A DNA stretch of 62,970 nucleotides, the filler included, from Chrysochromulina tobinii (Eukaryota), in NCBI GenBank assembly GCA_001275005.1. It is 7 parts of 7 records of this genome, joined end to end, with 100 filler letters (N's around TTAATTAATTAA, not from the genome) between each part and the next. Parts side by side here need not be neighbours in the genome. Positions count along the whole stretch, not along the records: positions 33,647 to 40,269 come from JWZX01000724.1; 6 more parts are not named here. One strand, given 5' to 3'. Shown piece after piece: positions 8,523 to 53,625 of the stretch. Position 1 is the stretch's first letter; each line of letters starts with the position of its first letter. The notes beneath the pieces were generated by a model. It was not told the origin of the DNA. It did not search any database and saw nothing but the letters and a program-made list of their open reading frames with translations. Both the position numbers and the translations under genes were made by a program.

Positions 8523-10400
8523 CCGTCGCGAGAGTGTGCGAGAGTGACGGACAAATTCCGGTGGCGGCGTTCCACGCCGTCGACCCCGACGGCCGCATCT
8601 GGAGCCCCCTTCAAACCGGTCCGGTTGAGCCATCGCGTGCCTCGAGCCTTCCATGAAACGCGGGGGGTCTCGTTCCGGTGGCGGCTTCACTTTCCGACGA
8701 AACGAGGAGACCCTGCGTCTTTATAATGTGACTTGCACCCGCACCCGGACAGCGGAAACCGCGGACGCCACCAACGGACGCCTCCCATGCAGCCGGGCGG
8801 ATCGGCGGCGGGCGCAGGCCTGCGGCGCACGCCGCAGCCGCGCCGGCATCGGTGCGAGGCAGCAGCGTCTGTGGGTTACGCACACGCACCAGGCGGGGAG
8901 GCAACGATGGCGGGGCGCGGCGCGTGGAGACACGAAATGGCGGGGCGCGGCGCGTGGAGACAATCGCGCCATCGTCGCCTCCCCCGGTTCTGCTCGTACG
9001 CCGTCACCCACATCGCCTTGCAATGCGCCGACGCTTCCTGTTGCTACCGTGCTCGTCGGGGCGGCGTTGGAGACGCCGGCGACATCGAACCTGCGTGCGC
9101 CGACGCGCCCGATGGCGCGCGTCCCCCGTGGGGAACGCAAAGACGCACTCGACACCGTCGCATGACGACGGTGTCGAGCACAAGTGGTGGCTTCCATCGC
9201 CGCCGCCGCCGCCGCCGCCGCCTCTTCCGTGGGCGTCACGCCGCAGGCCGAGGCACCATCTTCGGCGCCGGTTGCGCCGCGCAACGCGCTGCGTCGGCGC
9301 CTTCGCCGCCGCACCTGCACAGCACGCGCGCGCACTCAGCGCCATCGATTCGTGCTGCGGGCACGAGCTGGCCAGAGCTTGAGAGTCCGAGCGCAGCTCC
9401 TCCGTAGAGCGCGCGCGTCAAAACGCACGGCGAAAGGCGCGGGCAGGTCGATGGCGAATGGAGAGATGGTTGGGAGCAGCGCCGTCCGCCGACGCGCCTG
9501 GAGCCGGCCGCAGCGGGGCGCGGAGGCGCGCATCGCGCAAAAGCAAAAAGGTTGGAGGACGGAGCACGAATTAAAGGGGGTCCGAGCCAGTACCCTGAAA
9601 GGCTGCTGCGCTCGCCTTTTTCAGGGTCCCCAGGATAAACGCTTTTCCTATCGCGGAAGAAGAGAGGCAAAACTTGTGAATATTGATGACAATCACAATT
9701 CGGCCAAAGGAACATGTCTGCACTATGGCTCGTGCCTCTGTCTGATTGCCTCTCTGACTGCCCACGTCAAGGTGCGCGATCACAGAGCTATACAAAGGGT
9801 AAATCCACGCGGCGTACTTCGTCCCATCGCCCATCGATCGGACACGCGGCTCGCGGGACGAAGTGTACGGCGCGTCCCATCCATTGGTCCCATCGCCCAT
9901 CGATGTCGCATGTCCGATGTCGCGTGTGTGTAATTATAAATCGCGGACAATACCGCGGACAACTTGGATCGCGGAGTGACTCGCGCGGTCGACCATGCAC
10001 AGAAAGCACGCTCCAGCGTGGTCAGCTCCAGCAAGAGCACAGACCACGCGACCATCAGGTACAGGGCGAGGATTCCGAAGAGCCGATGGGCGAACCATAC
10101 GCCCCACGCCCACTCTGCTTGCGTCACCGGTGCGAGTACACAGCAATCCGCGGCAGCGCAAGCCACCATCGTGCCATTCTCCATGTTTGGGCTCTCTTGT
10201 TAATTAACAGTGAAACAGGACACAGTGAAGACCAGCTACCAAATCTCAGATACGCGCTGGGGAGCGTTAAGCGGGTAAAGGTTAGAGCAACCGGTGATCT
10301 GCGAGCCCACCCGCTCCATGTTTCGTCTTACAAGCAAAGTCTGTGAAATGTCGCATGCGCGGGCGGTCGCGAATCAAAACGATTGTGTGCTTGCTTTTTG

Positions 10401-10923
10401 TCAACCACTGAGTTCAAAATCAGGTGGTGGGGATAGTGTGTGAATCCAGAAAGACTCCCCTACCCCTTTGCGCTTTGGTCAACCACTGAGTTCAAACAAG
10501 GGAGTTCAAAATCAGGTGGTGGGGATAGTGTGTGAATCCAGAAAGAATACCCTCCCCTCCCCTATACCCCTTTGGGTCAACCACTGAGTTCAAAATCAGG
10601 TGGTGGGGATAGTGTGTGAATCCAGAAAGAATACCCTCCCCTACCCCTTTGGGTCAAGTGGACCACATACTAGAACCGAAATCCCGGGCCAATTAGAGGC
10701 TCAGCCAATAGGTACTAACGTTGGCTCGCCCGGGCGACTCTCACCCCGGGACCATAGTTTTACCCAAGGGGGTAGGGGAGGGATTAATATCTGGATTTGC
10801 ACCCCTTCCTCATACCCTGATTACAAACTGAGTGATTTACCCAAGGGGTAGGGGTAAGGGGAGGGATTAATATCTGGATGTGCACCTCCCACTTCCTCAT
10901 ACCCTGATTACAAACTGAGTGAT
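10401..10923. repeat. Three direct ~80-bp units facing two diverged inverted units across a ~100-bp spacer
   Basis: Unit TCAACCACTGAGTTCAAAATCAGGTGGTGGGGATAGTGTGTGAATCCAGAAAG...CCCCTACCCCTTTG at about 10401, 10479 and 10577; reverse-complement-like units at about 10759 and 10836. Confidence 0.88.
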
Positions 10924-11084: not shown

Positions 11085-11191
11085 CCTGCATGCAAGTGCT
11101 CATCACGACGCCAACGCGATGCTGGACATGCCCTCGACTCCCCCTGCATGCAAGTGCTCACCACGACGCCAATGCGATGCTGGGCATGCCC
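11085..11191 (+). repeat. Two tandem 58-nt-period copies containing the intron cassette core GCATGCAAGTGCTCA(C/T)CACG
   Basis: 11085-11133 and 11143-11191 are near-identical; the core matches the 3' cassettes of the introns at 11611-11700 and 35750-35812. Confidence 0.85.
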
Positions 11192-11342
11192 GATGTAGCC
11201 GCGCCCCGTACGCCACACAGTGCGCGAAAACAGGTCCCAGCCGCAGCTGACCGTCAATCGGGCTACAGGTACAGCTGGACAGCTGTACCGCTACGCAGAC
11301 CCTCAGTCCGTCAGCACCACGGCGCGAGCGGCAGGTAGCCCG

Positions 11343-12828
11343 TCAGCACCACGGCGCGAGCGGCAGGTCGAGCGGCGGCCGCAGGTTGTCGCTGGCGACG
11401 TTGACGTCGATATAGTGCGGCCGCAAGGTGTACGCGTTGACGCTAGGCTGCGGACTCCACTCGAAGGCGCGCACGGTGAAGGTTGAGTACGGCGCGAAGA
11501 GAAACTCGTCCTCGCCGTGCACGGTGCCCATCAGTGCGGTCGATGAAGTTGACGTGGACGCAGCGGCGGTTCGGGGGCAGCGCGCCATCGAGATGGAAGC
11601 GCCAGAGCACCTGTGGGGAGAGGAAGGGGAGGACGCCGTGGTTAGCACTTGCATGCTCGATCTAGGTGGAAGCGCCATCAAGGTGGAAGCGCCATCGCAC
11701 CGGCTCCTGAAAGGGCGGCGACTGCGAGGCGGTCGCGGGCGGCAGCCGCATCAGGAATGTGTGGATCGAGACGTCCTGCTCCACGCTCGTCGCGATGAAC
11801 ATCGGGGCGCGGTACGCCTTGCCCACGGCGAAGAAGCTCTGGAAGCAGCGTGGCATGGCGCCGCCGCGGTACAGGACGTGCTCGCTCGGCCACGGGACGG
11901 GGATGCCGCCCCGGCGCGCGACGCAAAAGGTGTTGATGGCGTGGGTGCAGGTGGCGGCGTGGTCGATGGTGTCCGCGCCGTCTTCGCGTAATGCCTGGTT
12001 GAGCAGCGAGCAGAACTCGCGCCCGCGCAACGTCTCCGCCGACGTCCACAGCCGCACCGCGATGTACATGATCTGATCGGGTCGGAGGATCTCATCGACG
12101 CCGCCCTCGCCGGCCTGCAGGGCCGCCCTGAGGGCGTTGGTGCGCAGCGTCTGGAAGAATCCGACGGCCTCGGAGCGGTCGATGCCCGCGCGCTGGGCGT
12201 GTGCGAGGATGAGGCTGTGCACGGCCGCCTCGAGCTGGAAGCTGCGGGGGGATGCCGAAGGCAAGCGCACGGGCGCACGAGCAGACACACGCGCGCACGA
12301 ATAAGTTACATAGCGCCGCGATCCTAATTAGGGAGCAGGCACGCACGAGCACGAGCATTCTTCTTCTGCGCTCGGGCAATCAGTAGCAATCAGTGGCGCT
12401 CAGTGGCGCTCAGTGGTCATCGGTGCGTACAGCTGGTCGGGTCTGCGCTCGGGCTTGTTGTAGCTCTCCATGAAGCGGGACGTTGCCAGTGACGTTGGTG
12501 GGGGCGTTGGTGTGAACGGGGAAGGTGGTGGGACAGGGCAGGAGATGGCGAGGCTCGCAGCGATAGCTGCAGCAAGCTGAGCGTCTTCTGCCTCATGCTG
12601 CGCATCTGCCGCCGCCTTTGCCGCCGCCGCCTTGTCGGCCGCCACCTTCGTGGCCGCCGCCTTGTCGGCCACCGCCTTGTCGGCCGCCGCCTTGTCGGCC
12701 GCCGCCTTGTCGGCCGCCGCCTTGTCGGCCGCCACCTTCGCGGCCCCGGTCTTGTCCCACCTGTTTCGAAGCGCACGGGGAACGCACGCTGTTGGCGCTG
12801 AGCAGTGGCGCCCATCACGGCGCGTCAT
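11343..12828 (-). CDS. Mono-ADP-ribosyltransferase (R-S-E/ARTC clade) with an upstream ubiquitin-interacting motif; 5' end unresolved, one +1 frameshift near 11528
   Basis: Motifs [43 protein letters not shown]-like [13 protein letters not shown] after (KAAAD)n; introns 12242-12430 and 11611-11700 join the frames. Confidence 0.8.
11611..11700 (-). other. Spliceosomal intron, exon-duplication plus cassette B type
   Basis: GTGCGA...CCCCACAG; its first 29 nt match the downstream exon start at 25/29; removal gives [28 protein letters not shown]. Confidence 0.85.
12242..12430 (-). other. Spliceosomal intron with internal (CCACTGAGCG/CTGATTGC) repeats
   Basis: GTACGC...CCCCCCGCAG; removal gives [12 protein letters not shown] in frame. 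Confidence 0.75.
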
Positions 12829-33646: not shown

Positions 33647-34086
33647 GTGCGTCGCCCTCCTTCCCCTCTGGTCGCGCCGTGGGGGACTGCGCGAGGATGC
33701 CGATCCCTCTAGGTGAGGAGAGCACGTTAGTGCTGACGATGTGTTGTGTGAACGCCCACGGGGGCGCGCGTAGCGCGGTGTGACTGAATCCTGGCGTGGC
33801 TTGCAAGTAAAGTCAAGTGGAAACTCCCCGGATCTGGAAACTCCCCGGCTGTGCCACTGGATGGGGGCATTGAGCCAGCACATCCAGTGGCAGGACCTCT
33901 GAAGCCCAGCCACGTACGAGCTGTGGACCACAAGACCACACCGTTCCGAATTATTCCACACAATTCCTAACTAAACATGAGAGCGAGCACTCATCAGTAC
34001 TCGTGTTGCCCGAGGGGTCCCGGTACAGCCTGAGTGCGCGGGGGTACGCGACGAAACTGTCCGTAACCAGAGTCACTTCGTGCCGG

Positions 34087-35960
34087 ATGGCACACGACCC
34101 GAGCCGGGCGCGTCCGACGACGAGGTGTTCAAGGATGATGGTGGGCATGTCCCTCGTGTTTGCGATCTCGGCATCGGAGGCGCCGTGCGTGGCGGTCACC
34201 TTCAACCGCTCCACGGAGAGCGTCGATAGCCTGGCGGCGATCGAGCCACAGCACGTGCGAGCGCTCGACGGCACGGCCGCTGCGGGGGCGTGCGCTGCCG
34301 ACACGTCGGCCGGCCACTACGCCGCGGGCGGCGATTGCTTCGACCTAGGCATCGGCGACGCATCGAGCCGCTGGAGGCCGTTGGCATTCATGCCACGCGA
34401 TCTGCGCGCGCCGCATCCGGATGCGCTCAGCCGTGGGCTGCGCCTTCAGGCGGCGCTCGACGAGCTCCAGCATCGCGGCCCGTGTGCAGCTCGGCCCACG
34501 TACACGGTCGCCGAGCTGCCGATGATTGGCACCTGCGCGACCATCGAGTATGCGATGCTCGCCCTGGCGACCGCGGCGAGCAGCGGCTCGCGGCTCATTC
34601 TCGGCCGCCAGTCCACGCCGGTCTGGACGTCCCACTGGCTCTGCGGGGCGGAGCGCTCGTTGGGATGTTACTTCAACGTCTCGGCCGCGTGCTGTCCAGA
34701 TGATGCGAGCTTCAGCGCGTCTTCGAGGGTGGAGGGGGCGGGCGACGCGGCCATGGCCAAGATGCTTCAGCTCAAGGCCGCCGCGCGCGGGCGCAAGCTC
34801 AACCTCAAGGAGAAGATGATGCTGACCAAGCTGAGCAAGGCGGGGCGCGCCGACGCGATGACGTCCAGCCGTGTCGACGAGAAGATGAAACGGCGCCTTC
34901 TCAAGGAGAAGACGGTGCGTGAGAGCGGGCGTGGCAAGCTCGGGCGGCAAGGGGTGCCGCCACGTAGTCGCGAGTGTCTCTGATTGCATGCTGATTGCCT
35001 CCCTCATCAGGTTCGACCGCCACGTAGTCGCGAGCTCGGCACGCTCGAGGGGCACAAGGCTGTCGTGGGCAGCTCGCGCGCGCTTACGCTGGGGGGCTCG
35101 CTCGCCGAGCACAATGAGTATGGAACCCTGTGGGTGAGTGGGCAGCTGGTGCATGGGCTCTTTGAGCAGATGCGGCCTGTCTCTGATTGCATGCTAATTG
35201 CCTCCCTCATCAGGTGAGTGGGCAGCTGGTGCATTGGCTCTTTGAGCAGATGCGGCCTGGCACGCGCGCCCAACTCGACGCCCGACGCGCCGACGTCTTC
35301 CCGCGCGCCGTCGAGTCGGCTGGGTACCGGCACTACCCCGGCACGGCGGGCGGCGCACGCGGCCTCACAATCGGGATGCATGTGCGCCGCGGCGACTCGT
35401 GCGCGCTCGGATCGCGCTTCTGCCCGCGCAACAAGACGGCGGCCTACTTTGAGATGGCGGCGAGATTGCGAGCGCAGTACCCCGCGATGCAACGGCTCGT
35501 GGTCGCGACGGACGATGAGGAGGCGGCCGCGCTCTGTGCGTCACGCGTGCTTGGGTTTGAGTGCATCACGCGAACGATGGATCGGACCCGATTCCAATCG
35601 CAGACCTCGATTGAACGGCGGGTGGTCAAGCACGCTAATGGGCTCCTCTCGGGCGCCACAGTCACGCTCGACGCCCTCGCCGACCTCGAGATGCTCGCCG
35701 ACTGCGACGCGCACGTGCTCGTGTTTCGCTCGGCTCTCTCCCGTCTTGCGTACGCTCTGCAGCATGCCCGCAGCATGCAAGTGCTCACCACGGCGCCCTC
35801 CCCTCCCCACAGGTACGCTCTGTCCACGGCTCGCAAGGGGCGCTTCACGCCGCTCATCTCGGTGCAGTGGCCGTGGGGAGGGATGCCCGGGCCGTCGAGC
35901 TTGGGAGCGGCGCGACCAGCGGCGGCGAAGGTGTATCAAACCTTGAAAGTGGCGATGTGA
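34087..35960 (+). CDS. Alpha-1,6-fucosyltransferase-like (GT23, FUT8/NodZ-related), 4 exons
   Basis: GMHVRRGDSC, LVVATDD and LADLEMLADCD...S..SRLAY motifs; introns 34954-35010, 35134-35213 and 35750-35812 give one continuous frame. Confidence 0.85.
34954..35010 (+). other. Spliceosomal intron, exon-duplication plus cassette A type
   Basis: GTG + an exact 18-nt copy of downstream exon sequence (34957-34974 = 35017-35034) + 36-nt TGTCTCTGATTGCATGCTGATTGCCTCCCTCATCAG; contains an in-frame stop. Confidence 0.88.
35134..35213 (+). other. Spliceosomal intron, exon-duplication plus cassette A type
   Basis: First 46 nt match the downstream exon start at 45/46, then cassette A (35/36 identical to the previous copy); removal restores the frame. 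Confidence 0.9.
35750..35812 (+). other. Spliceosomal intron, exon-duplication plus cassette B type
   Basis: GTACGCTCTG (identical to 35813-35822) ... GCATGCAAGTGCTCACCACGGCGCCCTCCCCTCCCCACAG; removal gives RLAYALST. Confidence 0.82.
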
Positions 35961-36199
35961 CCCAGAGAGAGAGACGCCGTCCTCGGAAGAGACCGGCTTG
36001 CACCGCAGCGGATGCGGGACGGAATCAATTCTCGAAGGCTGCGTCAGGAGAACAAACCCCTTTGAAAGAACACAGGACGCTTGTCTCTGTCCGGGGTCAG
36101 CTACCGTTACGACAAACTTGGAAATCAAACTTGAAACTGTGTTCAAGTTCCGCGCGGACCCCTCTCAAGTCGCGGTCGAACCGCGCGCGAGAGGGCGTG

Positions 36200-37880
36200 A
36201 TGAAGTTCATGTATCGTACGTGCGCGCAAAGACTCCTCCTCCTCTACCTCTTGCCCATGCTGGCAAGCGCTTGCACGACGCTCGTTGCGGGGCGCGGGGC
36301 CACCGTAGACGGCAGCGTGCTCACCTCGCATTCAAACGATGGCGATGGCACCACGATCGGAAACTTGCAGATCGTCGAGGCGGCGAACTGGTCGCTCCCC
36401 CAAACGCGGCCAGTCTCCGGCGGCAGCGTGCCGCAGGTTGCGCACACATACGCGTACTTCACCAAGGTGGGCGGTTACGCCTCCATCAACGAGCACCAGG
36501 TCGGCCTCGCCGAGTCAACATGCAACGCAGTGTTCTTTGGCCAGAGGGAGAAGGCCGTGCTCAACATCGTCGATCTGAGTGAACTCGGCTTGGAGCGCGC
36601 GAACACGTCGCGCGCCGCCGTGGCAATAATGGGCGCGCTGGCCGAAGCTCACGGCTACTACGACGCGGGCGAATCCCTATTTGTAGTCGACCCGGCGGAG
36701 GCCTTCATCTTCCACGTGCTGCCCGATCCATCGGGCACCTCGGCAGTTTGGGTTGCGCAGCGCGTGCCCGATTCGCACGTGGGTGTCGTGGCGAACGCGT
36801 TCACGGTGCGCGTGGTCGACCTGAACGACTCCCACGCCTTCCTGTACAGCAAAACGATGGTCGACGTGGCGCTTGCGACCGGCCGTTGGAGGCGCGATCT
36901 GCCCTTCGACTTCACACGAATCTTCTCTGGACCGGAGCTTGGGCACAAGTACGCGTCTGGTCGACGTATGTGGGCCGCCTTTCGCGCTCTCGCGCCCGCA
37001 GCGTCGGTGAGCCTCTCACCCACATACACCGAGTACGTCTCAGCCTCGCACTACCCAGCCACGCTGCCCGCGACGAACGTGAGCGCCGGCATGCTGCGCG
37101 CTACTATGCGGAACTATTACGCGGGGACGCCGTACGACATGAGCGTGGGCATGGCAGCCGGTGCGGCCGGCTCCCCGATCCGCGCATTGCCTCTGAGTGC
37201 CTCTCCTAGGCACTGATCGACGCTGATGGCCTCGGAGCGCAGGTGCGTTTGGCTCCCCCATCCGCTGGAGTACCGGTACCGGTACGACGGGCCACTCTGA
37301 GATCACGGGCAACTTTGAGCGCTCGATCGCTACTCCGCGCACCATTGTATCGTACGTGCTCGTCGTGCGCAGCTGGCTGCCCGCGCCCGTTGGGGGCGTC
37401 GCTTGGTACTCGTTCCACGGGGCCCTCACCTCGGTGTATGTGCCGCTGCTCACGCTGATGCTGGGCGCAAAGGTCGCTCTGGCGCCCAGTCTGACACAAA
37501 ATGGCGGCGCAGTGGATCGTGGGGTGGGCGCGTGGCAGGCGGCTCATTTCGTCTTCGCCGCCTCGCAGATCGACTTTGGCGGTGCGTTGCCGCTCGTGCA
37601 GCAGGCGCAGCAGCAGTGGGAAGATGCCGCCGGCGAGGCGCTCGTAGCCAATGCCGTTGCCGACTTCCAGGCGGGTGCAGAGACAGAAAATGTGCTCGCC
37701 AAGCGCTGCAACGAGCATGCCACTGCCGCAGTGGCGGCGTGGTGGGACCTTTCAGATGCCTTGCTCAGCCGCATCTCGCCGCCCGCACTCCACTACCCGA
37801 CATGGTGGCTCCAGGCACCGTCGGTCAACTACACCAACGGCCCGCCAGTCGCACCAGATGTGCCGCCACCGCCACACTGA
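36200..37880 (+). CDS. Secreted peptidase family C69 (dipeptidase A/secernin-like, Ntn hydrolase), 2 exons
   Basis: Signal peptide then nucleophile CTTLVAGRGATVDGS; INEHQVGLAEST, LERANTSR, WVAQRVPD, ANAF; spliced AAGAFGSPIR...ERSI. Confidence 0.92.
37161..37242 (+). other. Spliceosomal intron, exon-duplication plus a third cassette type
   Basis: GTGCGG...GAGCGCAG; first 23 nt match the downstream exon start at 19/23; removal restores the C69 frame. Confidence 0.85.
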
Positions 37881-39007
37881 TAGACCGGTGCCATATGTGT
37901 GTGTCCTGGTTCCTAGTGAGTTACTGGGGGGTTATACTAGGTGTGAGGGCTCAGGGGGTGGCTCTGAGTCCTAACCAGCCCCTCAACTATCGTGCTCAGG
38001 GGTTCTGGCCTGTGACCTTTGGGGTGGATTATACTGTCAACTACCCAGATTTCAGGGTCAGGGGGGCCATGGGGGCCCTCTGAGACGCACCCCTCTGACA
38101 CAGTCCAAGCCGCACAACTACCAGACTGTGACCTCACAGGGTCCTCTGCGCTGCGCCCACGCGCACGCACCATGGGTGGGGCGTGGGGGTTGGGTATAAG
38201 TGAGGGCATTTTGGTAAATTGTCCATTCTTTGGACAAGATTCGCGTAACACGGTAAAAGTCATCGTGCCTCCGTATCCAGGGAAAAAGCCACTTTCGCCG
38301 AATGTACCACAGTACTTCGCTTAAACTGAGCGTGATATTGTTTGTCATTCATGAAAAAACTTGGGGAGTGTCAGAAACAAACTCTCGAAAACTGACCGGT
38401 ACTGTTCTGTAATCTTGCGTTGCGTTAGCGTTGCGTGCCGTAACCGACGCTCCGAGCACGCACTCCATCGGTTCCGACGCATCCTGAAGGCCCAATTGTG
38501 ATGGCCACTGAGTGCATCCCGCGATGACCACTGAGTGCATCCCGCTGCATGCCCCGTTGGCCAGTGAGCGCATCCCGATGATCTATCTGTGTATCTGAGT
38601 GCTCCTCACTGTGAGCTGGTGACCGGATACGTGTACATCACTTGAAACTGGAGCTCTGTGGGCTGGTGACCGGAGGATTTTTGGTGGTAAGCGTGTAACT
38701 GGGTTGAGCAGATCGCATAACTCGCATGAATACACGTGCACAAAAGGGGTATTGATTAAGGACCATTTCAGGATCTAGTCCAAAAAAGGTTCGGGAACAA
38801 ACGATGCTATAGACCTCGAGAGTTCCCCCAAAAAGATCGGCATTGCGCCGCTCCCTGCGGCCGCTGCTAAACGCGTAGATGCGTCTAGCACAAGCCCTGC
38901 GTCTATGTATAGCTGCTCAACGTGACAGATCCGCGTAAGGCTCGCAATTAGGCTCGCAAGGTCAGCTTCCTTGCTTGACCAAGCATTGTTGTCGCCGTCT
39001 TGGACTC

Positions 39008-40181
39008 CAGAGGGGTGGGTTTAACATTGAGACACTTTTTTGCGTTAAGTATCAAGTGTTGAGACACCAAAACAGGTGTTGAGACACCAAGTGTTGAGAC
39101 AGGAAAACAGGTGTTGAGACAGGGTTTGAGACAGGTGTAGATGTTGCCGCCGTCAACATCTACAGTTCAAACGCCGAATCGGCGTCAAAAATAACGGTCG
39201 TCAAGTGCGGATATTCTTCGAATTCATATCCCCTCAACAATCTCGGACAATTTTTCAATTACGCTTTATTTGGGTCCCACGAAGGTCGAAGCGCGGTCTT
39301 GGATGGACTGCCGGCCTCTCTCTGAAGTTGCATCGTCGCGGCTCGTGTGGGACCTACAAGATCTTCTATGCAGAAGAGGAGACGGAGGAGATGGTGCTCG
39401 AGCAGTGGGAGGACCTGAAGGCGGAGATCAAAGTGCCGACGCTGCGCACGCTCAGCTTTCATCAGCTGTGGGCGAACATGCTCGTACAGTACGCGGACGA
39501 GTATGCGCTGGTGCTGCGCCTCGTTGTCATTTCGCTGCTCATCCCCGCTGACACATCGGAGTGCGAGCGCATCTTCTCGCTCATGAACGACCTCAAGACT
39601 GCCGAGCGGAACTCGATGGGCCAGCAGAACCTCAAGAACCTGATGCTGTGGCACATCATGGGCTACAAGACGGACATGGAGGGCAAAAAGGTCAAGATGC
39701 CGTGTTGTGACGTGCCGGTGATGGCCATCCTCAAGGAGTTCCGCTCGATGGCATTTGAGAATGGCGGCATGCTCGGCCGCAAGGCCCACCCCGGTCGGCG
39801 GCAGTGCCAAAGTACGAGTATGAGAAGCACCGGGCACCAGTGAAGGCGGCCACCTCGGCCGCCTCCTCTGCCGCAGAAGAATGAGGAATGAGGTTCTGGT
39901 AGAGGAACGTGACATGGAGAGTGCGGGCAGGCATGACATGGAGGGCGGCGGGCGGGCGCGTCGCGACTCACGAGTCGGCAACGCATGGCGAGTCGAGACT
40001 CGAGAGTCGCTGTAGAGCCGTACCGGGCGTGTTTTCGAGGTGTTGAGACGGGCTGAAGAGGTGTTGAGACAGGCTGTCTCAACAGCTCCTCAAACAGGTG
40101 TTGAGACAGGCTAACACTTCCTGAGCTTAAGTGTTAATACAAACGTCTCAACAGCGTCTCAACGTTAAACCCACCCCTCTG
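39008..40181 (+). mobile_element. Internally deleted (non-autonomous) hAT DNA transposon
   Basis: TIR CAGAGGGGTGGGTTTAAC(A/G)TTGAGAC at both ends; perfect 8-bp TSD TTGGACTC (39000-39007, 40182-40189); subterminal GTGTTGAGACA repeats. Confidence 0.95.
39365..39843 (+). pseudogene. hAT transposase C-terminal dimerisation-domain remnant
   Basis: LLIPADTSECERIFSLMNDLKTAERNSM...LKNLM matches the hAT P.sS..cER.FS...R..l pattern. Confidence 0.88.
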
Positions 40182-44376: not shown

Positions 44377-44582
44377 TGACTAGACCTGGTGGGCGCATTC
44401 TTTTCACAAGGTCGCGCGAAATTTATTTCGGCGGCGCTTCCACGAGGCGGAATACTTACACGTGTTGGAGCTCAAGAACCGGGGAAACTTACTGTCGATG
44501 TTGAATTTTCTGAAACGTGCGACTTTTCCACACGAGGCGCCTAAACGACCTGCGAATCGCTCCCTGATCGCTCCCTTCGGCA

Positions 44583-46228
44583 ATGGCGCGGTCAGTGAGC
44601 CTCTTCCACGACGAGAGGATCTCCGTGCACGCCTCCATCGAGGGCAGCCTGCTCAAACCGCACATATTGAAGTGCGTGCGCCGCGCGCGCGCGCTGCGAG
44701 TGCCAGTGGGAGAGCGCTCAGCGCGTTCCCAGGCACCCACAGATTCTCAGAGGCCCTCCCGCTGACGCACGCGCGCCGATCGTACGCTCGCAGGCTCACC
44801 TACGAGCTCATCAAGGCATACGGCCTGCTGAATCACGTCAGCCTGCGCCTGACACCAACGCAGTGGCAGCCGGCGTCTGTGGCCGAGGTGACGCGCTTCC
44901 ACACTGATGCATACGTGCACTTCCTAGAGCAGCTTGAGAGCAACGCCGCCGAGGTGCGCGACGAGGCGGGCAACTACGTGCTCAACCCGAGCGTCGTCTT
45001 TACCGAGACGGCGTGGCTATACTCGCAGGCCTACACGGGCGGCTCGCTGGCTGCGGCGCGCATGCTGCGGAGCAGCGAGACCGACATCGCCATCTGCTGG
45101 ATGGGCGGGCAGACGCACGCGCGGCGCGACTGTGCGTCGGGCTTCTCGTTCGTGAACGACGTGGTGCTCGCGATCCTGGCGCTGCTACAGCCGTCCGTCG
45201 AGGAGCCGAACGAGGAGCGTCGCGTGCTCTTCCTCAACCTGGACGCCTGGCATTGCTCGGGCGTCGAGGAGGCCTTCTACACCACAGACCGCGTGCTGTG
45301 CCTCTCGCTGCACCACCGCGCCGACGGGGTGTACCCGGGCTCGGGCGGGAGCGCCGACTGTGGCGAGGAGCGCGGCAAGCACCACACGATCAACCTGCCC
45401 GTCTCCGACGGCCTCACCGACGAGAACCTCGATGCGCTACTGCTGCCTGTGCTTGCGGCGGCGGCGGAGCGATTCTGCCCGCACGTGATTGTGTGCTGCG
45501 CGGGCGCGGGCTTGATCGCGGGCGACCGGCTCGGATGCCTGAACGTGTCGCTCGACGGCCACAGCAGAGTCCTCAAGGCCCTCATGTCTCTTGAGCTCCC
45601 TCTGCTCGTTCTGGGCGGCTGCGGCTTCACGCAGCTCAATGCGGCCAAGGTCTGGTGCCACGCCACCGCGACGCTCTGCGGCGTCGAGCTACCGATGGCG
45701 CTGCCCGAGCACAGTTACATGGACTACTACTTGCATGAGCCTACGCTCTCCGTGCCGACCTGCACCCTCGACAACCGCAACAGCGCCCTCGCCCTCGAGG
45801 CACTGAAGGAGACAGCCTTATACTCTGTGGAGCAGATGCCTCAGCGTGTGAAGCCGCAGCTCAAGCCCGTGCGAGCGGCGGCGCCACCGGCGGACGCGCC
45901 GCCGCCGCTTGCTCGCACGTCGACGTCTGTCATCGGCGGCGCCTCCGCCTGCATCGGCCTCGCCGCGACCGGCGCGCCGCCAACAGACGTCGAGATGCGA
46001 TCTGCGCGTACTCGATGTGAGTCAACAGCGGACGCGTCGGCGGCGGCGAGCGGCATGGAGCCCGCAGCGGTGCCTCCGGCTAGCGCCGACGAAGGGGGGG
46101 GGGCGCCTGCGCCCGTGCCCGCGGGCGAGAACGGTGCCGTGGTGGGCATGGACGTGGACGGCGGCGAGGGCGATGCAGGTCGCGAGCGGATAGACGACGA
46201 CATGGTCGCCGAGGAGCACCGGCGGTGA
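44583..46228 (+). CDS. Class I (RPD3-like) histone deacetylase homolog with degenerate active site; intron 44672-44793
   Basis: KPH, RFHTDAYV.FL, ASGFSFVNDVVLAI, GVEEAFYTTDRV, INLPV.DG, GDRLGCLN; a GT-AG intron joins ILK|LTYELIKAYGL. Confidence 0.9.
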
Positions 46229-46944: not shown

Positions 46945-46985
46945 ATTGACAGGTTGTAGTGCCCTTCACACCGCACGAAGAGAAA

Positions 46986-48845
46986 ATGGCTGAACGACCC
47001 AAAAGGCAGGCCTCACAGGAGTTGGAGCGCTCCGATAGTCAACACGAAGTGCTCGAGGCTGATTCCAACGCGCCCGCAAAGCCACGCCGACCATCACGAA
47101 TAAGGACGATTTCGAACAAGATGTTCAGACTCTTTCGCCGGAGCTCCAAAGATCTTGGTGGGACGAGCTCCGAAGGGGCGGCAACGCCTCCGGCTCTGGC
47201 CGTATCCAGCTCCACATCCATGAAAGATGCCGAGCCGGATGCTGATCAAGAACCCGATGCAGTGGCGATGCACTCGCACCCATCGTCTCCGGGCCACGAA
47301 GGGATCACAGATGAGCGCTCCGAGTTCGCAGAGCTCTCGCGCCTGACGGAGGTCTCTGTTGAAGAGTCTACGAGTGAGCCGCTCTCGCTGCACGGCAGGT
47401 CGCTCCACCAGCGGCAAGGGGACGCGAGCTTCTGCACATCCGCTGCCGGCCCTGCCGTGCCGCTGTCGGTTGCGTGCCCGCCGATGCTAAAAGGGAGGGC
47501 GTCAAGCAAGTTGTCAGTCAGCAGTCTCGTGAACATGCTGAGCGGCTCCATGTCGAGCCTCTTCACGCCGCGTTCGCCTCGCGGAGGGCAGAGCGGTGCC
47601 AGCGCGGGCGGCATTGAGGGCGGCGGTGGTGAGGGTGGCAGCGAGGTTGGTGCAGGGGAGGGCGGCGGTAAGGGTGGCGGCGAGGGTGGTGGATGGGAGG
47701 GCGGGGATGGCAATGGCGATGGTGCGAGTGGCGGTGGCAAGGTAGAGAGTGAGAGTGGCGGTGGCGGTGGCGGTGGCGGTGGCGGTGGCGTCATCCATGG
47801 CGTCGGCGTCGGCGAGGGTGGCTCAGCGGCCGACATGCCCTTAGTGGCGGAGGACGAGGGCGCATTCCTGGGCGCTAAGCGGCCGAGGACCCCTCCGTGG
47901 GAGTACTCCTGCGAGATTGAGGAGATGGTGGAGATTGCGGACCAGTATGGGAGCGACGCCCCTCTTGAGCACATGATCGACCTTCACCAGCTCGAGATGA
48001 TCGTGCGCGAGCAGGCAGCCGCAGCCGGCGATCTCGAGGAGGAGATGGTTTCGCCTGGGCAGGTTGCTCTGCGGGAGCTCGCCGAGATGCTCGACCCGGC
48101 AGATTTGCATCGCATCGGTGCCACGTTTGGTATGATCGCCTCGCCATTCTCCTTGCCGCCGCCGCCAATGGCCGGCGGCGAGGGGCTGCCCAGCGCGTTG
48201 CGCACCTCAGAAGACCAAGGACACCTACACGCCTCACACCTACAAGCCATGCCTGTGCACCTGCCCGGCGGCAGTATCGGCAGTTGCAGCACCGCCAGCA
48301 GCAGCGGCAACAGCGGCGGCAACAGCAGTGGCCGCGTCGGCGGCGGAGGCGGCGGCGGAGGCGCGGGCGCGACCGACGGTCGTGTGCGAAACACAATGGG
48401 CCGCAAGGAATGGTCGGCCGAGGAAGACCAAGCAATCATGGAGGGTGTCGCTCTACACGGCCAAAAGTGGCGCGTGATCGCGCAGCTATTCCCCGGGCGC
48501 ACCGACGATGCCGTGCGTAACCGTTGGAAGCGACTCTCTGCGGAGATGGCAGAGGGGCTCACCGAGGGACTTATCGAGGGTCTCGACGGCTCAGCGGCGG
48601 TGGAACCCAGGGCTGCGGCCGGGGCAGCGGCCAAGGGGGAGGCGAAGCAGGCGGCGAACAAGGAACGGCTCGCGTGGAGCAGAGCGGAGGACGCCAAGAT
48701 TGTCGAGTGCGTACAATCCTTTGGCCTCAAATGGAGTCGCATCGCCGAGCAGCTCCCCGGCCGCACCGTCCACGCGATCCGCAACCGCTTCCATCGACTG
48801 CAGACGCTCCAGGCGGAGCAGGCGGCGTTGGCGGCCGCCTCATAG
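46986..48845 (+). CDS. MYB transcription factor with two separated Myb/SANT repeats
   Basis: WSAEEDQAI...KWRVIA..FPGRTDDAVRNRW and WSRAEDAKI...KWSRIA..LPGRT.HAIRNRF. Confidence 0.92.
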   Translation: MAERPKRQASQELERSDSQHEVLEADSNAPAKPRRPSRIRTISNKMFRLFRRSSKDLGGTSSEGAATPPALAVSSSTSMKDAEPDADQEPDAVAMHSHPSSPGHEGITDERSEFAELSRLTEVSVEESTSEPLSLHGRSLHQRQGDASFCTSAAGPAVPLSVACPPMLKGRASSKLSVSSLVNMLSGSMSSLFTPRSPRGGQSGASAGGIEGGGGEGGSEVGAGEGGGKGGGEGGGWEGGDGNGDGASGGGKVESESGGGGGGGGGGGVIHGVGVGEGGSAADMPLVAEDEGAFLGAKRPRTPPWEYSCEIEEMVEIADQYGSDAPLEHMIDLHQLEMIVREQAAAAGDLEEEMVSPGQVALRELAEMLDPADLHRIGATFGMIASPFSLPPPPMAGGEGLPSALRTSEDQGHLHASHLQAMPVHLPGGSIGSCSTASSSGNSGGNSSGRVGGGGGGGGAGATDGRVRNTMGRKEWSAEEDQAIMEGVALHGQKWRVIAQLFPGRTDDAVRNRWKRLSAEMAEGLTEGLIEGLDGSAAVEPRAAAGAAAKGEAKQAANKERLAWSRAEDAKIVECVQSFGLKWSRIAEQLPGRTVHAIRNRFHRLQTLQAEQAALAAAS

Positions 48846-50623: not shown

Positions 50624-50976
50624 AGAGCCATTTGAATCTCTTCGTTTCGCGTTGCCGGCGTTTGACGATGTAATACAAGTGTACAATGTGCACCTCTAAA
50701 CGCGGTTCTGGTGGGATACTTTTCGAACTCGGACACAGTTTATGAGCGCAATATGAGCGCAAAGGTGCAGAGCGGAGAGTGCAATCGGAAGGGCGGCGGC
50801 GCTCTTCGCGGGCCGGTCCACCCCAAGCTCTATTCTCACCTCAAGAGCGTTGCAAGATGCAGACGTTCACAGTCTCAATCAAATTCAGAGGCTCCAGCGC
50901 CCTCTCGGCGCCGCCGGCGGCCTCACGCTCGGCTCACGGCGGCGACGGACGAACTGACGGTGTGCTTTGGATTGTG

Positions 50977-53625
50977 ATGTCCACCGCTCTCATCATCGCG
51001 ACGCTCGCGGCCGGCCACTCACATGCACAAGTGAATCCCACAGCTGCCGCACGCGCGCTCATTCAGCGCACGGCGCCCGCACTTGCGGATGCCTTCTCGC
51101 TCGAAGTGTTACCACAGCCGAACGGGGCGATGCAGCTGGATTCTGACGGCAAATCAATCATCCTGCGTGGATCCGGCGCGGTCGAATTGGCATCTGCCTT
51201 CAACTGGTATCTCAACGACTATCTGAACGTCACCATCGATTGGAGCACCTACGGCGACAAGCAATTGCCCACATCTGGGCCTCTGCCACTGCCTGAGAAG
51301 AGCCCAGTGGTATCCCGACGTGTCGCGTGGACCTACTACATGAATGTTTGCACCTATGGCTACAGCCTCGCGTTTGTGCCGTGGAGCTACTGGGAGCAGC
51401 ACATCGACTGGATGGCCATGCAGGGCATCAACCTGCCGCTCGCCTTCCTTGGACAAGAATGGGTCTGGGCGCGCGTCTTCGAGAGCTTCAACATCAGCCT
51501 CGCCGAGCAGCAGTCCTTCTACTCGGGCGCAGCCTTCCTGCCGTGGTTCCGCATGGGCAACATGCAGGGCTTTGGAGGGCCGCTGTCGGACAGCTGGATG
51601 ACCGCCCGTCGCGACCTGGCCATCAAGGTCTTCGCGCGCATGCGAGAGCTTGGGATGACGCCCGCGCTGAGCGCTTTTGCTGGCCACGTGCCTGCAGCGT
51701 TCGCGACACATTTCCCGTCGGCCAAAATCTCACGCTCGCCCGACTGGGCCGGCTTCGACTTGGCCGACCCGGTGACTGCGCCGTACGCTGATGTTTGGTT
51801 GCTCGATCCCGCGGAGCCTCTGTTCGTTGAAGTAGGCAAACGATTCATCGAGCTGCAGACGGCGACGTACGGTACGGACCACATTTATCAGGCCGACACG
51901 TTCAACGAGATCGCGCCGCCCACGCACGACCCGGACTATCTACGCGCCTCGAGCGCCGCCGTGTACGCGGCCATGGCCGCGGCCGACCCGTCGGCCATCT
52001 GGCTCATGCAAGGCTGGCTCTTCCAGAGCAGCTGGTGGACAAATCGTGACATTCAGGCGTATTTGGGCGGTGTGCCGCGCGGCTCGATGTGGCTGCTTGA
52101 CCTGTTTGGCGACTCCAACCCGATCTGGTCGAAGACGGCCTCATACTACGGCCATCCCTTCATCTTCTGCACGCTCCTCAACTTTGGCGGCCAGCAGGGC
52201 ATTGTGGGCAACACGCCTCGCGTCGTGACGGGGTTCGAGGCCGCATTGGCCAACAGCACTGTCAACGGGGTAGGCATCACGATGGAGGGTATCTGGACGA
52301 ATTACAACATGTTCGAGCTGCAGCTGCTGCTTACGTGGGAGGGGGCGCGCTTCACCCCAGGCACGGTCGCACCCAAGTACGACCCGGTCGCGTACCATGC
52401 CGCTTATGGGCATCGTAAATATGGCGGGGTCGCGCACCCATCGGCCGTCGCCGCATGGGCACTGCTTGGATCGACCATCTACAGCGGCAACGGCGGCGGT
52501 TTCGGCTCGATCATCTCGGGTGTGCCCTCACTGGCGGGCATCAACTGCCCGCACCCACCGATTGGCGAGCAGCCGCCCTCTCCCGAGGCTCCGCCCGGCT
52601 ACGAGCGACGGCATCCCCTCGATGGGTACTGGGATCCACCCCCTGGCGCACGGCTCAACAGGTCGGTCACTGAGTGCGCCGATCTGTGCGATGCTGCGGG
52701 AGACCAGTGCGACGCCTTTGAGGTGTACATTCACTACCCGCCCGATCGCGGCGATTGCTACCCGATGCTCAGCGCCAATAAGCCATTTGTGCCGATGGGC
52801 GCGGAGTCGCGCACGTACCTCAAGAAGAAGCCCATGCAGCCTCAGGCTGTCCGAGAGGCCGATGGAGTGGTCGTTGGCGCCGCCGCCGCTGCTGTCTCAA
52901 GGGAGCAGCGCGTCTCGCAGGCAAGTGGAGCCGCGGCTCGGGATGCAGCCTGCGCCCTCGACAGCGCTTCAGCTTCACGGCGCCGGGCCGAGGCTAGCAC
53001 CTTCCAATCGGTGTGGAAGCTCCTCCTCGAAGCAAAAGACTCCCACGGACACGTACCAAGCTTCCGCTTTGACGTCGTAGACGTGGGCCGCGAGGTGATT
53101 GCAGCCAACTTCACGGCCATGTTTGCCGTCTACAACGCCAACTTCGTGGCGAAGAACGCAGCGGCGACCGCCGTGCTCGCGCGACAACTGCTCCAGACGA
53201 TCGACGACTATGAGAGACTGCTCTCGACGGACGTCAACTTTTTGCTCGGACGATGGATTGCGTGGGCGCGCGATTGGGGCGAGGATGCGGAGGCCAAGGC
53301 CCTCCTTGAATACGGCGCGCGCAACCAGCTGACGCTCTGGGGACCCACCGGCCAGATCAACGACTACGCCAAAAAGGAATGGTCGGGGATCGTAGCGACC
53401 TATTATAAGCCACGATGGGCAAAGATGCTCAACGCGGCACAGGCCTACCTCGAAGGCGGTGCCACTGGCTCGTGGGCGGACGCGAGCGTCGAGTACTGCC
53501 GCGACACCTGGGCCACCCTAGAGAAGCCATGGCAGACCGACTACACGACAACCTTCCCGACCACGCCGACGGCCGACACCATCGACGTGGCGTTGTCTCT
53601 GATGAGTGTGTATGGCGCGCAGTAG
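50977..53625 (+). CDS. NAGLU: Alpha-N-acetylglucosaminidase (GH89)
   Basis: YYMNVCTYGYS, IDWMAMQGIN, DTFNE, WLMQGW, LLNFGG, GITMEG, ARNQLTLWGP...DYA.KEWSG; signal peptide. Confidence 0.96.
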   Translation: MSTALIIATLAAGHSHAQVNPTAAARALIQRTAPALADAFSLEVLPQPNGAMQLDSDGKSIILRGSGAVELASAFNWYLNDYLNVTIDWSTYGDKQLPTSGPLPLPEKSPVVSRRVAWTYYMNVCTYGYSLAFVPWSYWEQHIDWMAMQGINLPLAFLGQEWVWARVFESFNISLAEQQSFYSGAAFLPWFRMGNMQGFGGPLSDSWMTARRDLAIKVFARMRELGMTPALSAFAGHVPAAFATHFPSAKISRSPDWAGFDLADPVTAPYADVWLLDPAEPLFVEVGKRFIELQTATYGTDHIYQADTFNEIAPPTHDPDYLRASSAAVYAAMAAADPSAIWLMQGWLFQSSWWTNRDIQAYLGGVPRGSMWLLDLFGDSNPIWSKTASYYGHPFIFCTLLNFGGQQGIVGNTPRVVTGFEAALANSTVNGVGITMEGIWTNYNMFELQLLLTWEGARFTPGTVAPKYDPVAYHAAYGHRKYGGVAHPSAVAAWALLGSTIYSGNGGGFGSIISGVPSLAGINCPHPPIGEQPPSPEAPPGYERRHPLDGYWDPPPGARLNRSVTECADLCDAAGDQCDAFEVYIHYPPDRGDCYPMLSANKPFVPMGAESRTYLKKKPMQPQAVREADGVVVGAAAAAVSREQRVSQASGAAARDAACALDSASASRRRAEASTFQSVWKLLLEAKDSHGHVPSFRFDVVDVGREVIAANFTAMFAVYNANFVAKNAAATAVLARQLLQTIDDYERLLSTDVNFLLGRWIAWARDWGEDAEAKALLEYGARNQLTLWGPTGQINDYAKKEWSGIVATYYKPRWAKMLNAAQAYLEGGATGSWADASVEYCRDTWATLEKPWQTDYTTTFPTTPTADTIDVALSLMSVYGAQ

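Follow-up and report, generated by a model that had tools for sequence, protein, structure and literature searches.

Introns and host genes of the window

The window is the whole joined stretch of 62,970 nucleotides from Chrysochromulina tobinii, a freshwater haptophyte alga of the C. parva/tobinii group, that was analysed, and all positions are counted along it. It holds the host genes of four introns on the plus strand and a fifth, predicted intron on the minus strand:

34087..35960, plus strand: host gene of introns 1 to 3, with uninterrupted relatives 95-97% identical
34915..35010, plus strand: intron 1, 96 nt, RNA-supported donor at 34915
34975-35010, plus strand: cassette A of intron 1, following an 18-nt perfect exon copy at 34957-34974
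35017..35034, plus strand: exon partner of that 18-nt copy, from sequence comparison
35134..35213, plus strand: intron 2, 80 nt, with a 46-nt exon copy (35134-35179) and then cassette A (35180-35213)
35214..35259, plus strand: exon start duplicated in intron 2, from sequence comparison
35750..35812, plus strand: intron 3, 63 nt, with a 10-nt exon copy and then cassette B (35773-35812); weak RNA joint
36200..37880, plus strand: host gene of intron 4, peptidase C69 (PF03577)
37161..37242, plus strand: intron 4, 82 nt, with a 23-nt exon copy, a degenerate A-type array and an acceptor end of its own
11611..11700, minus strand: intron 5, 90 nt, predicted, with a 29-nt exon copy (11700-11672) and cassette B (11611-11656)
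11088..11170, plus strand: tandem 5' halves of cassette B, two units without acceptor end, outside any predicted intron

The gene carrying introns 1 to 3, for which Pfam gave no match over exons 1 and 3, may be fucosyltransferase-like, a label taken from a motif. An earlier note on this DNA had attributed one design to all five introns, namely a copy of the start of the downstream exon, whose GT serves as donor, followed by one shared acceptor cassette, with splicing restoring the coding sequence. The exon copies were recovered in introns 2 to 5 with few mismatches (45/46, 10/10, 19/23 and 25/29 nt, respectively), and in intron 1 the perfect 18-nt copy exists but is not in register with the first bases. 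The donor proposed for intron 1, at 34954, had to be abandoned, as RNA contigs from two studies, in 3 of 4 runs, splice this intron from 34915. The 5' 60 nt of the intron look like what was once coding sequence. The single cassette resolved into two families, A and B, the array of intron 4 being a degenerate A; the A cassette of intron 2 differs from that of intron 1 by 1 mismatch in 36 nt. A 6-bp palindrome lies near the 5' part of both cassettes.

RNA and DNA support was drawn from assembled contigs, not raw reads. GT..AG excision from mRNA was found for intron 1 in its corrected form, for intron 2 (2 of 4 RNA runs, one study) and for intron 4 (1 of 4 runs, the shorter flank measuring 86 nt), and weakly for intron 3, joined in 1 of 4 runs with a shorter flank of only 20 nt. 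The predicted intron 5 leaves a continuous reading frame across its junction. The unspliced form, with SNPs, is present in four DNA-like runs, where individual contigs span introns 2 and 4, and the summed contig depth of the very many cassette copies is hundreds of times that of the gene; no empty allele was found in the contigs of these four runs. An independent assembly (locus L024) also carries introns 1 and 2; at the intron 2 site its exon copy is shorter and its junction differs. Cassettes do break short-read contigs, and one allele pair (L049/L110) differs by unit number only, yet the exon copies are 4.3% off their exons in the listed loci, are found again with SNPs in independent runs and are removed from RNA by splicing, so that we give practically no credit to an assembly artefact at repeats. 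The L049/L110 pair was itself considered as an empty site and rejected, being unit-number variation or assembly collapse.

Uninterrupted sites in relatives, which the earlier note had proposed to look for, were found among close homologues, the genomic origin of these proteins being deduced from their long contigs. The gene of introns 1 to 3 has uninterrupted forms of 541-542 aa (95-97% identical, contigs up to 28,326 bp), and the cluster of the gene of intron 4 includes a Chrysochromulina parva protein that reads through the junction as spliced. At locus L068, 10 alignable intron sites are read through by an uninterrupted homologue of 623 aa (on contigs reaching 38,865 bp; 85% identical, with orthology versus paralogy judged by pairwise identity only); a second paralogue, read by eye, lacks at least 7 of these introns and has 3 private ones, and over that L068 exon the C. 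tobinii protein belongs to the intron-free type. Gain at such sites is therefore likely, and the window introns were likely gained recently; in the few genes tested, many recent gains at new positions share sequence, as introners do. Splicing is scarless for introns 2 to 4 against homologues, but not for intron 1, where 12 residues of an intron-free relative are absent. These 12 extra residues were weighed as proof of gain and dismissed, because a 60-nt duplication with later loss of 36 nt from the exon copy would undo the argument; the gain of intron 1 thus rests on homologue parsimony.

Exon copies and cassette families in sampled loci

Loci were picked by a cassette-A pattern, giving at least 127 loci with 244 distinct cassette acceptors among the matches listed; the counts below hold for the loci listed. 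An anchored upstream copy of the next exon start (score at least 8) accompanies 146 of the 244 listed acceptors, against a mean of 8.9 in 20 swapped control sets, bearing out the enrichment of exon copies among cassette-bearing introns that had been anticipated. The length of these 146 copies ranges from 8 to 60 nt (median 25), so the variable-length duplication proposed for the window extends to the sample. The branch-like motif occurs in 218/244 listed intron ends (45-nt scan) vs 28/244 exon stretches (39 nt). Divergence of copies and cassettes was not correlated (rho 0.21, p 0.24, n=34).

Exons start with GT or GC after 220/244 listed acceptors, including 83 of the 98 without a copy, and GTR follows 60 of those 98. 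The donor consensus is kept at exon starts (+3 purine 98%, +5 G 57% in 91 simple cases), and intron phases are 52:19:17 of 88. The origin of the donor in an exonic GT, with a 3' module common to other introns, is upheld. It could be argued that these are old introns whose ends were rewritten from spliced cDNA during abortive intron loss, with no new positions: cDNA-primed repair would presumably also put a next-exon copy at the 5' end, and junctions do change at one site (intron 2 vs L024). The donor-like exon starts, even where no copy exists, and sites empty in close and distant homologues and in paralogous domains make this account very improbable, and it is largely refuted for the tested genes.

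The 5' parts of the introns are site-specific exon copies, and the commonest 9-mer occurs in only 7 of 167 listed array-led donors, revealing no common 5' module. First copies lie directly after the exon in 91 of 125 listed cases, 42 of these 91 being perfect, and after another cassette in 33 of 125; cis re-duplication is therefore common and could make some copies without new insertion. Arrays reach 7 units, with alleles differing in unit number, and at L049 two units share one cassette variant with different copy lengths. These last observations, together with the 4-bp-TSD introners described for a Chrysochromulina MAG in the consulted part of PMC9860276, would fit a short-TSD introner that first inserted at GT sites, the long copies arising afterwards, when cassette and exon start were tandemly duplicated in cis and the first unit was then lost. 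We regard this as quite unlikely, given that there is no common 5' module, that the many copies adjoining their exons would demand many precise losses, and that duplication-plus-array inserts at new sites (L070, L072) are left unexplained.

Flanked inserts, junctions and searches for an element

Exon direct repeats flank 140 of 338 listed array islands, vs 6-8 in 3 controls, and the single design first proposed turned out to be one of several. The 140 listed islands comprise 63 of the reported design, 13 mirror, 22 straddling (some of them the reported design plus a chance CAG), 8 with another acceptor and 34 without precise splice, several of which are gapped copies; by eye, about 30 of 44 listed mirror or straddle candidates look real. 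In the mirror candidates a same-sense array lies between the donor and a duplicated upstream exon end, which would supply the acceptor. Some inserts end within the array, short of the acceptor, and some lie antisense. Alleles illustrate several of these outcomes: compared with L065, L070 differs by an antisense in-frame duplication plus array inside the exon of one allele; the 98%-identical alleles L072 and L048 differ by the presence or absence of an intron made of array plus target copy; and in L036 vs L078, one of the two alleles has gained A units at a B acceptor. Among the alleles compared, no clean empty/filled pair of the reported design was found at the DNA level.

Microhomology at the 5' junction between copy and array averages 1.56 vs 0.71 nt (39 scorable of 91 listed junctions), reaching at least 2 nt in 18/39 against 6.9 expected and being nil in 12/39. 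At the 3' junction, microhomology is indistinguishable from splice-site selection. Ectopic copying is seen at locus L009, where a whole intron was copied 2.9 kb along with the exon copy of the other site, in a 65-nt intron end that is nearly the same in diverged paralogues, and in the A units gained by one allele of L036 vs L078. For 20 of 160 listed A introns the most similar cassette is found in their own locus, vs 6.9 expected and a maximum of 15 in 300 permutations; at k=14, or for family B, local sharing did not exceed the permutation maximum, and mean cassette distance between neighbours was not significant. Later gene conversion would also give local sharing. Nearest neighbours on the same record are on the same strand in 25/25 cases, yet opposite-strand pairs are few (172/940). 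For 22 of 26 longer fillers a local source was absent.

In agreement with the earlier note, no TIRs and no fixed short TSD were found: cassette A contains only a 5-bp inversion, no better than in shuffles, the duplications span 8-60 nt, and the 5' ends of the shared part are ragged. Hairpin folding was not significant for cassette A (z 0.93, 0.11) and weak for cassette B (z -1.95, -1.13), whose shared 5' extension reaches only about 10 nt, in 3 copies. The autonomous element expected to end in the cassette did not appear: about 0.85 Mb of overlapping loci contained no long cassette-ended element, the search yielding one marginal 11-nt far copy among 98 no-copy acceptors, and Pfam (E<=1e-8) detected no reverse transcriptase, transposase or endonuclease in 121 ORFs (102 locus ORFs of at least 480 aa, among 211 of at least 300 aa listed, plus 19 window frames), a test of low power covering about 1% of a genome. 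Rfam had no match over 33650-38000, and the cassettes none in the viral contigs scanned.

A fixed 3' end with a variable 5' end, a variable duplication and microhomology fit LINE-type insertion. The reported design, taken by itself, shows these features, with fixed 3' ends in two families, 5'-truncated arrays and 8-60-nt duplications that could stem from a nick, and a non-autonomous retro-type element moving by TPRT would account for it; non-LTR-derived introners do exist (PMC12130899, in the text available). Such an element would give a single polarity, against which stand the same-sense mirror and straddling designs and the inserts that end within the array; it is also opposed by the absence of an A-rich tail, the short 5' extension of cassette B, the lack of a reverse transcriptase in the ORFs searched, at low power, and the local sharing of cassette variants. 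We consider it unlikely, and the target-primed insertion of a pre-made module put forward by the earlier note, while fitting the reported design, is weakened likewise by mirror, antisense and acceptor-less inserts. A dedicated element or nuclease of another, unknown kind, making long staggered cuts filled from a short DNA master, could draw on the very many cassette copies and the palindrome present in each of the two cassettes; the poor hairpins, the ragged 5' ends and the lack of matches in Rfam or viral contigs render it improbable.

Proposed origin and relation to known systems

Flanking exon direct repeats and 5' junction microhomology are the marks of staggered-break repair with templated insertion, and the fill-in of a staggered break with capture, already suggested in the earlier note, comes close to our best reading. 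We lean slightly towards an origin in microhomology-mediated repair that makes a duplication and uses another intron as template for the insert, selection keeping the spliceable outcomes. A staggered break or stalled nascent strand would copy an exon stretch X of 10-60 bases; its end would then switch, as the junction microhomology suggests, onto the branch-point-like array of an existing intron, sometimes a neighbour in the same gene, and after a variable piece had been copied it would return to the start of X, giving X-insert-X. An insert running through the acceptor with an X starting in a donor-like GT would yield the reported design, an X ending in AG the mirror design, and an X spanning AG|GT an intron drawing both sites from X and its branch point from the array, three classes that are seen among the sequences; any other combination would give no intron. 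Selection would retain spliceable or in-frame outcomes, each new intron becoming a new template, and local re-duplication would build the unit arrays, with no dedicated element needed. Polymerase-theta-type end joining, aborted homologous repair or fork switching are candidate enzymologies, and the template may be DNA or pre-mRNA. Against the templated-copying reading, no event was caught together with its template, a master element would be expected to leave just such fixed and abundant 3' ends as the two families have, and local cassette sharing is a minority signal.

As in known introner classes (including Symbiodinium), the donor comes from the duplicated target and the acceptor from shared sequence, with donor-like exon starts, a phase-0 bias and many related introns. 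Known classes have a fixed TSD of 3-8 nt each, and TIRs in the Symbiodinium elements, in contrast to the 8-60 nt found here, where moreover only part of the intron is shared, that part has ragged ends and there are same-sense mirror designs. Introns similar to each other up to both ends, the introner criterion given in the accessible text of PMC9860276, were not found. The Chrysochromulina sp. introner of Gozashti et al. 2022 (PMC9860276, same portion), from the same genus, likewise lacks a TIR and takes one splice site from the target; it differs, as compared with A and B by description, in its 4-bp TSD, in carrying the 5' site and in coming from a Tara MAG. The staggered-break gains of Daphnia, as presented in the parts consulted of PMC4202315 and PMC3443670, are also recent, show exon direct repeats and repeated events in young introns, and imply no transposon, but their repeats measure 4-12 bp with a mostly unidentified source, whereas here repeats are longer and the insert, from two intron families, brings ready splice signals. 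AG|GT tandem duplication and intron transfer between paralogues, in the same part of PMC3443670, fit the straddling class and the intron ends that paralogues share, with the difference that here a foreign array separates the duplicates and most introns draw one site from the duplicate. Polymerase-theta or SD-MMEJ templated insertions (PMC7407515, in the text available) combine duplication and insert with 1-4-nt microhomology and iterative rounds, as here, and that text includes rice tandem duplications with ectopic donors; there they are mutation scars with mostly near-break templates, not presented as a recurring intron source. Our literature search found no description of this exon-copy plus cassette intron class.

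The origin of most recently gained introns cannot be traced, and transposons are at present seen as the main cause of mass gain (PMC12130899, in the part consulted). If repair copying is true, it would mean that introns are gained in a way that has been little described. More tentatively, we can envisage a transposon-free chain reaction, without element, master or terminal structure, in which introns with branch-point repeats serve as repair templates and new introns seed their neighbours; if so, single genes would have gained about ten introns in this way while close paralogues gained none. Introner pipelines requiring similarity at both ends likely miss this class, which may thus be under-counted elsewhere. 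In a cultured group of algae, the duplicated target, the captured piece and the failed by-products can all still be made out, and therefore repair-driven gain and the proto-splice-site idea would become testable with population genomes.

Exon copies and splicing of the window introns

The window consists of seven contigs with N spacers between them. The introns compared are the following, the first three lying in one gene:
34915-35010, plus strand: intron 1
35134-35213, plus strand: intron 2
35750-35812, plus strand: intron 3
37161-37242, plus strand: intron 4, in a C69 peptidase gene
11611-11700, minus strand: intron 5

The earlier note ascribed to all five a copy of the next exon's start at the 5' end and an acceptor-bearing cassette at the 3' end. 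Four of the copies do lie in register (matching at 45/46, 10/10, 19/23 and 25/29 positions), whereas that of intron 1, 18 nt long and without mismatch, is shifted relative to the exon start. Three of four runs have RNA contigs that link 34914 to 35011; therefore, intron 1 is 96 nt long and its donor is at 34915, not at 34954 as first proposed. The junctions of introns 2 (35133 to 35214, two of four runs) and 4 (37160 to 37243, one of four) are likewise confirmed, and that of intron 3 (35749 to 35813) appears in one of four runs with one side short, splicing being established for three to four introns. DNA-like runs carry the window introns unspliced, with SNPs, and no empty alleles were found among them. 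In these runs the contig depth summed over the two cassettes exceeds that of the genes by a factor of hundreds, and the flanks of the copies differ; both cassettes are hence high-copy.

Splicing had also been held to leave no scar. Removal of intron 4 creates no indel relative to 21 homologues, and removal of introns 2 and 3 none relative to 6; intron 1 departs from this rule because 12 residues of uninterrupted relatives fall inside it here. Its duplication may have started at 34954, with splicing then shifting to a stronger donor further upstream; alternatively, the start was 34915 and a 36-nt stretch of the exon copy was later lost. The intron 4 copy (37166-37185) is nearer to the exon in other strains than in the window, and its drift is therefore neutral.

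The intron 5 gene (11340-12330, minus strand) has a disrupted frame downstream of the intron; its first exon has no Pfam match, and its motifs presumably recall an ADP-ribosyltransferase-like fold. Just upstream of it, at about 12355-12450 (minus strand), an A-type array of branch-point-like units is flanked by an 11-nt duplication, for which the classifier gives no precise splice outcome, and 11088-11170 (plus strand) holds the 5' half of cassette B in two tandem units outside any predicted intron. The stretches 10394-10641 and 39053-40112 appear not to code for protein and contain short repeats in tandem or direct arrangement, with units of 72 nt and repeats of 11-15 nt.

Uninterrupted homologues

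The gene of introns 1-3 has uninterrupted relatives of 541-542 aa, 95-97% identical and on contigs as long as 28 kb, as well as 282-aa forms ending in intron 1; sites 2 and 3 are also continuous in five homologues at 41-59%. A 546-aa homologue of the C69 peptidase sits on a 42.5-kb contig, the best named match of this gene being from Prymnesium parvum (73%) and its 90% cluster including a Chrysochromulina parva protein. Among loci fetched by a cassette-A pattern scan, the L068 gene has 12 array-bearing introns as read by eye, and 10 of these sites are spanned in alignment by an uninterrupted 623-aa homologue, whose contigs reach 38.9 kb. Such long contigs would be genomic. Empty homologues are established and, as far as sequence comparison goes, probably represent the empty sites in relatives that the earlier note called for, intron gain being the parsimonious reading.

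A 60% identical paralogue of the L068 gene has, also by eye, only 2 introns in common with it and 3 of its own; one common intron ends in 65 nt near-identical in both, which points to transfer. Among the loci listed, a paralogous domain is continuous across the junction in 5 of 91 cases and broken at the same place in 1 of 91. A gene from these loci shares 85% identity with a C. tobinii protein across one exon; with the C69 matches, this makes the host a haptophyte of the C. parva/tobinii group.

Intron density is strongly clumped: the L068 gene (L068 2975-6301 and L057/L063), whose C-terminal domain is HSP20, bears 12 array introns, predominantly a single variant, while a close homologue is free of them. 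At L021 (minus strand, near 10025) and L020 (plus strand, 1717-1800) the intron occupies only one of the gene's repeated protein domains. The genome paper gives C. tobin 59 Mb and about one intron per gene (PMC4580454).

Intron designs among the fetched loci

The single scan retrieved at least 127 loci (847 kb including overlaps), a selected sample and not a genome-wide census. Among the loci listed, 244 terminal acceptors remained after duplicate removal (193 of family A and 51 of family B, including a few chance matches), and 146 of them have an anchored upstream copy versus about 9 in swapped controls, the enrichment of exon-copy 5' ends that the earlier note had anticipated. Copies measure 8-60 nt (median 25), and the exons begin with GT in 193 cases and GC in 27; GC donors serve the same design (L019+6219, L065+7083, L068 ~5665 and others). 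For the 91 simple cases of this list, copy and exon diverge by 4.3%, 42 copies are perfect, and the donor consensus is kept at the exon start itself, from which background GT sites differ; the consensus also marks most listed acceptors that have no copy. Intron phases among the same loci are 52:19:17.

Two further designs are predicted from sequence: mirror introns, in which a donor and a same-sense array would be followed by a copy of the upstream exon's end providing the AG, and straddling introns, in which both splice sites would come from the duplicate. On inspection, about 30 of 44 such candidates among the loci listed look real. The sequence classes themselves are established: when 338 array islands of the listed loci were sorted independently, the reported design accounted for 63, the mirror design for 13 and the straddling design for 22, with 8 other and 34 imprecise cases; 198 islands had no repeat, and controls yielded 6-8 flanking repeats. 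As a by-product, L070 has an in-frame 28-nt duplication around an antisense array, missing from L065, and a 114-nt intron of L072, missing from the 98%-identical L048, consists of an array plus an imperfect target copy.

Proposed repair-templated capture and its alternatives

Arrays in the listed loci reach 7 units, differ between alleles and combine both families. They would be explained if a short-TSD introner came first and cis duplication later, but the introns have no 5' module in common. Insertion of the cassettes by a retro-type element, weighed against the insertion features of LINEs, explains the reported design well, yet it leaves over the mirror, acceptor-less and local features. 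Moreover, the autonomous element ending in the cassette for which the earlier note proposed a search did not emerge, no master being found in about 1% of a genome. No mobile-element gene occurs among 19 window frames; long frames have NAGLU (50746-53622), histone deacetylase (44384-46225), Myb (46950-48842) and mitochondrial carrier (529-1566) family matches.

Repair-templated capture is the best fit, a reading that we favour by a little over even chances: an exon stretch would be duplicated while template switching captures a templated piece, and selection would then act on the products. Junction microhomology is established (1.56 versus 0.71 nt, 39 of 91 listed cases being scorable), as is some ectopic copying. 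One L009 intron duplicates in full an intron 2.9 kb away, that site's exon copy included, and private cassette variants reappear in neighbouring introns of the listed loci. There, the nearest-neighbour test gave 20/160 versus 6.9 for family A at k=12, was borderline at k=14 and was not significant for family B; spectrum similarity within 1 kb gave p=0.006 with seed matches taken out. The readings above do not account for most of the fillers that separate copy from cassette in this list (22 of 26), for the dominance of two fixed acceptor ends or for the missing correlation with age.

No account of this design was found in the literature searched, which left out most subscription papers, and the portions consulted of PMC9860276, PMC12130899, PMC3443670, PMC11282704, PMC4580454, PMC8469720, PMC7407515, PMC4202315 and 10.1101/2020.10.14.339549 do not describe it. 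The introner family tables of two PNAS papers could contain cassettes A/B, and PMC11782384 describes 213 introns with direct repeats of 4-30 bp close to their borders. At the splice level these introns behave like acceptor-carrying introners but fall outside the definition of introners, and the intron-gain process is real and recent.
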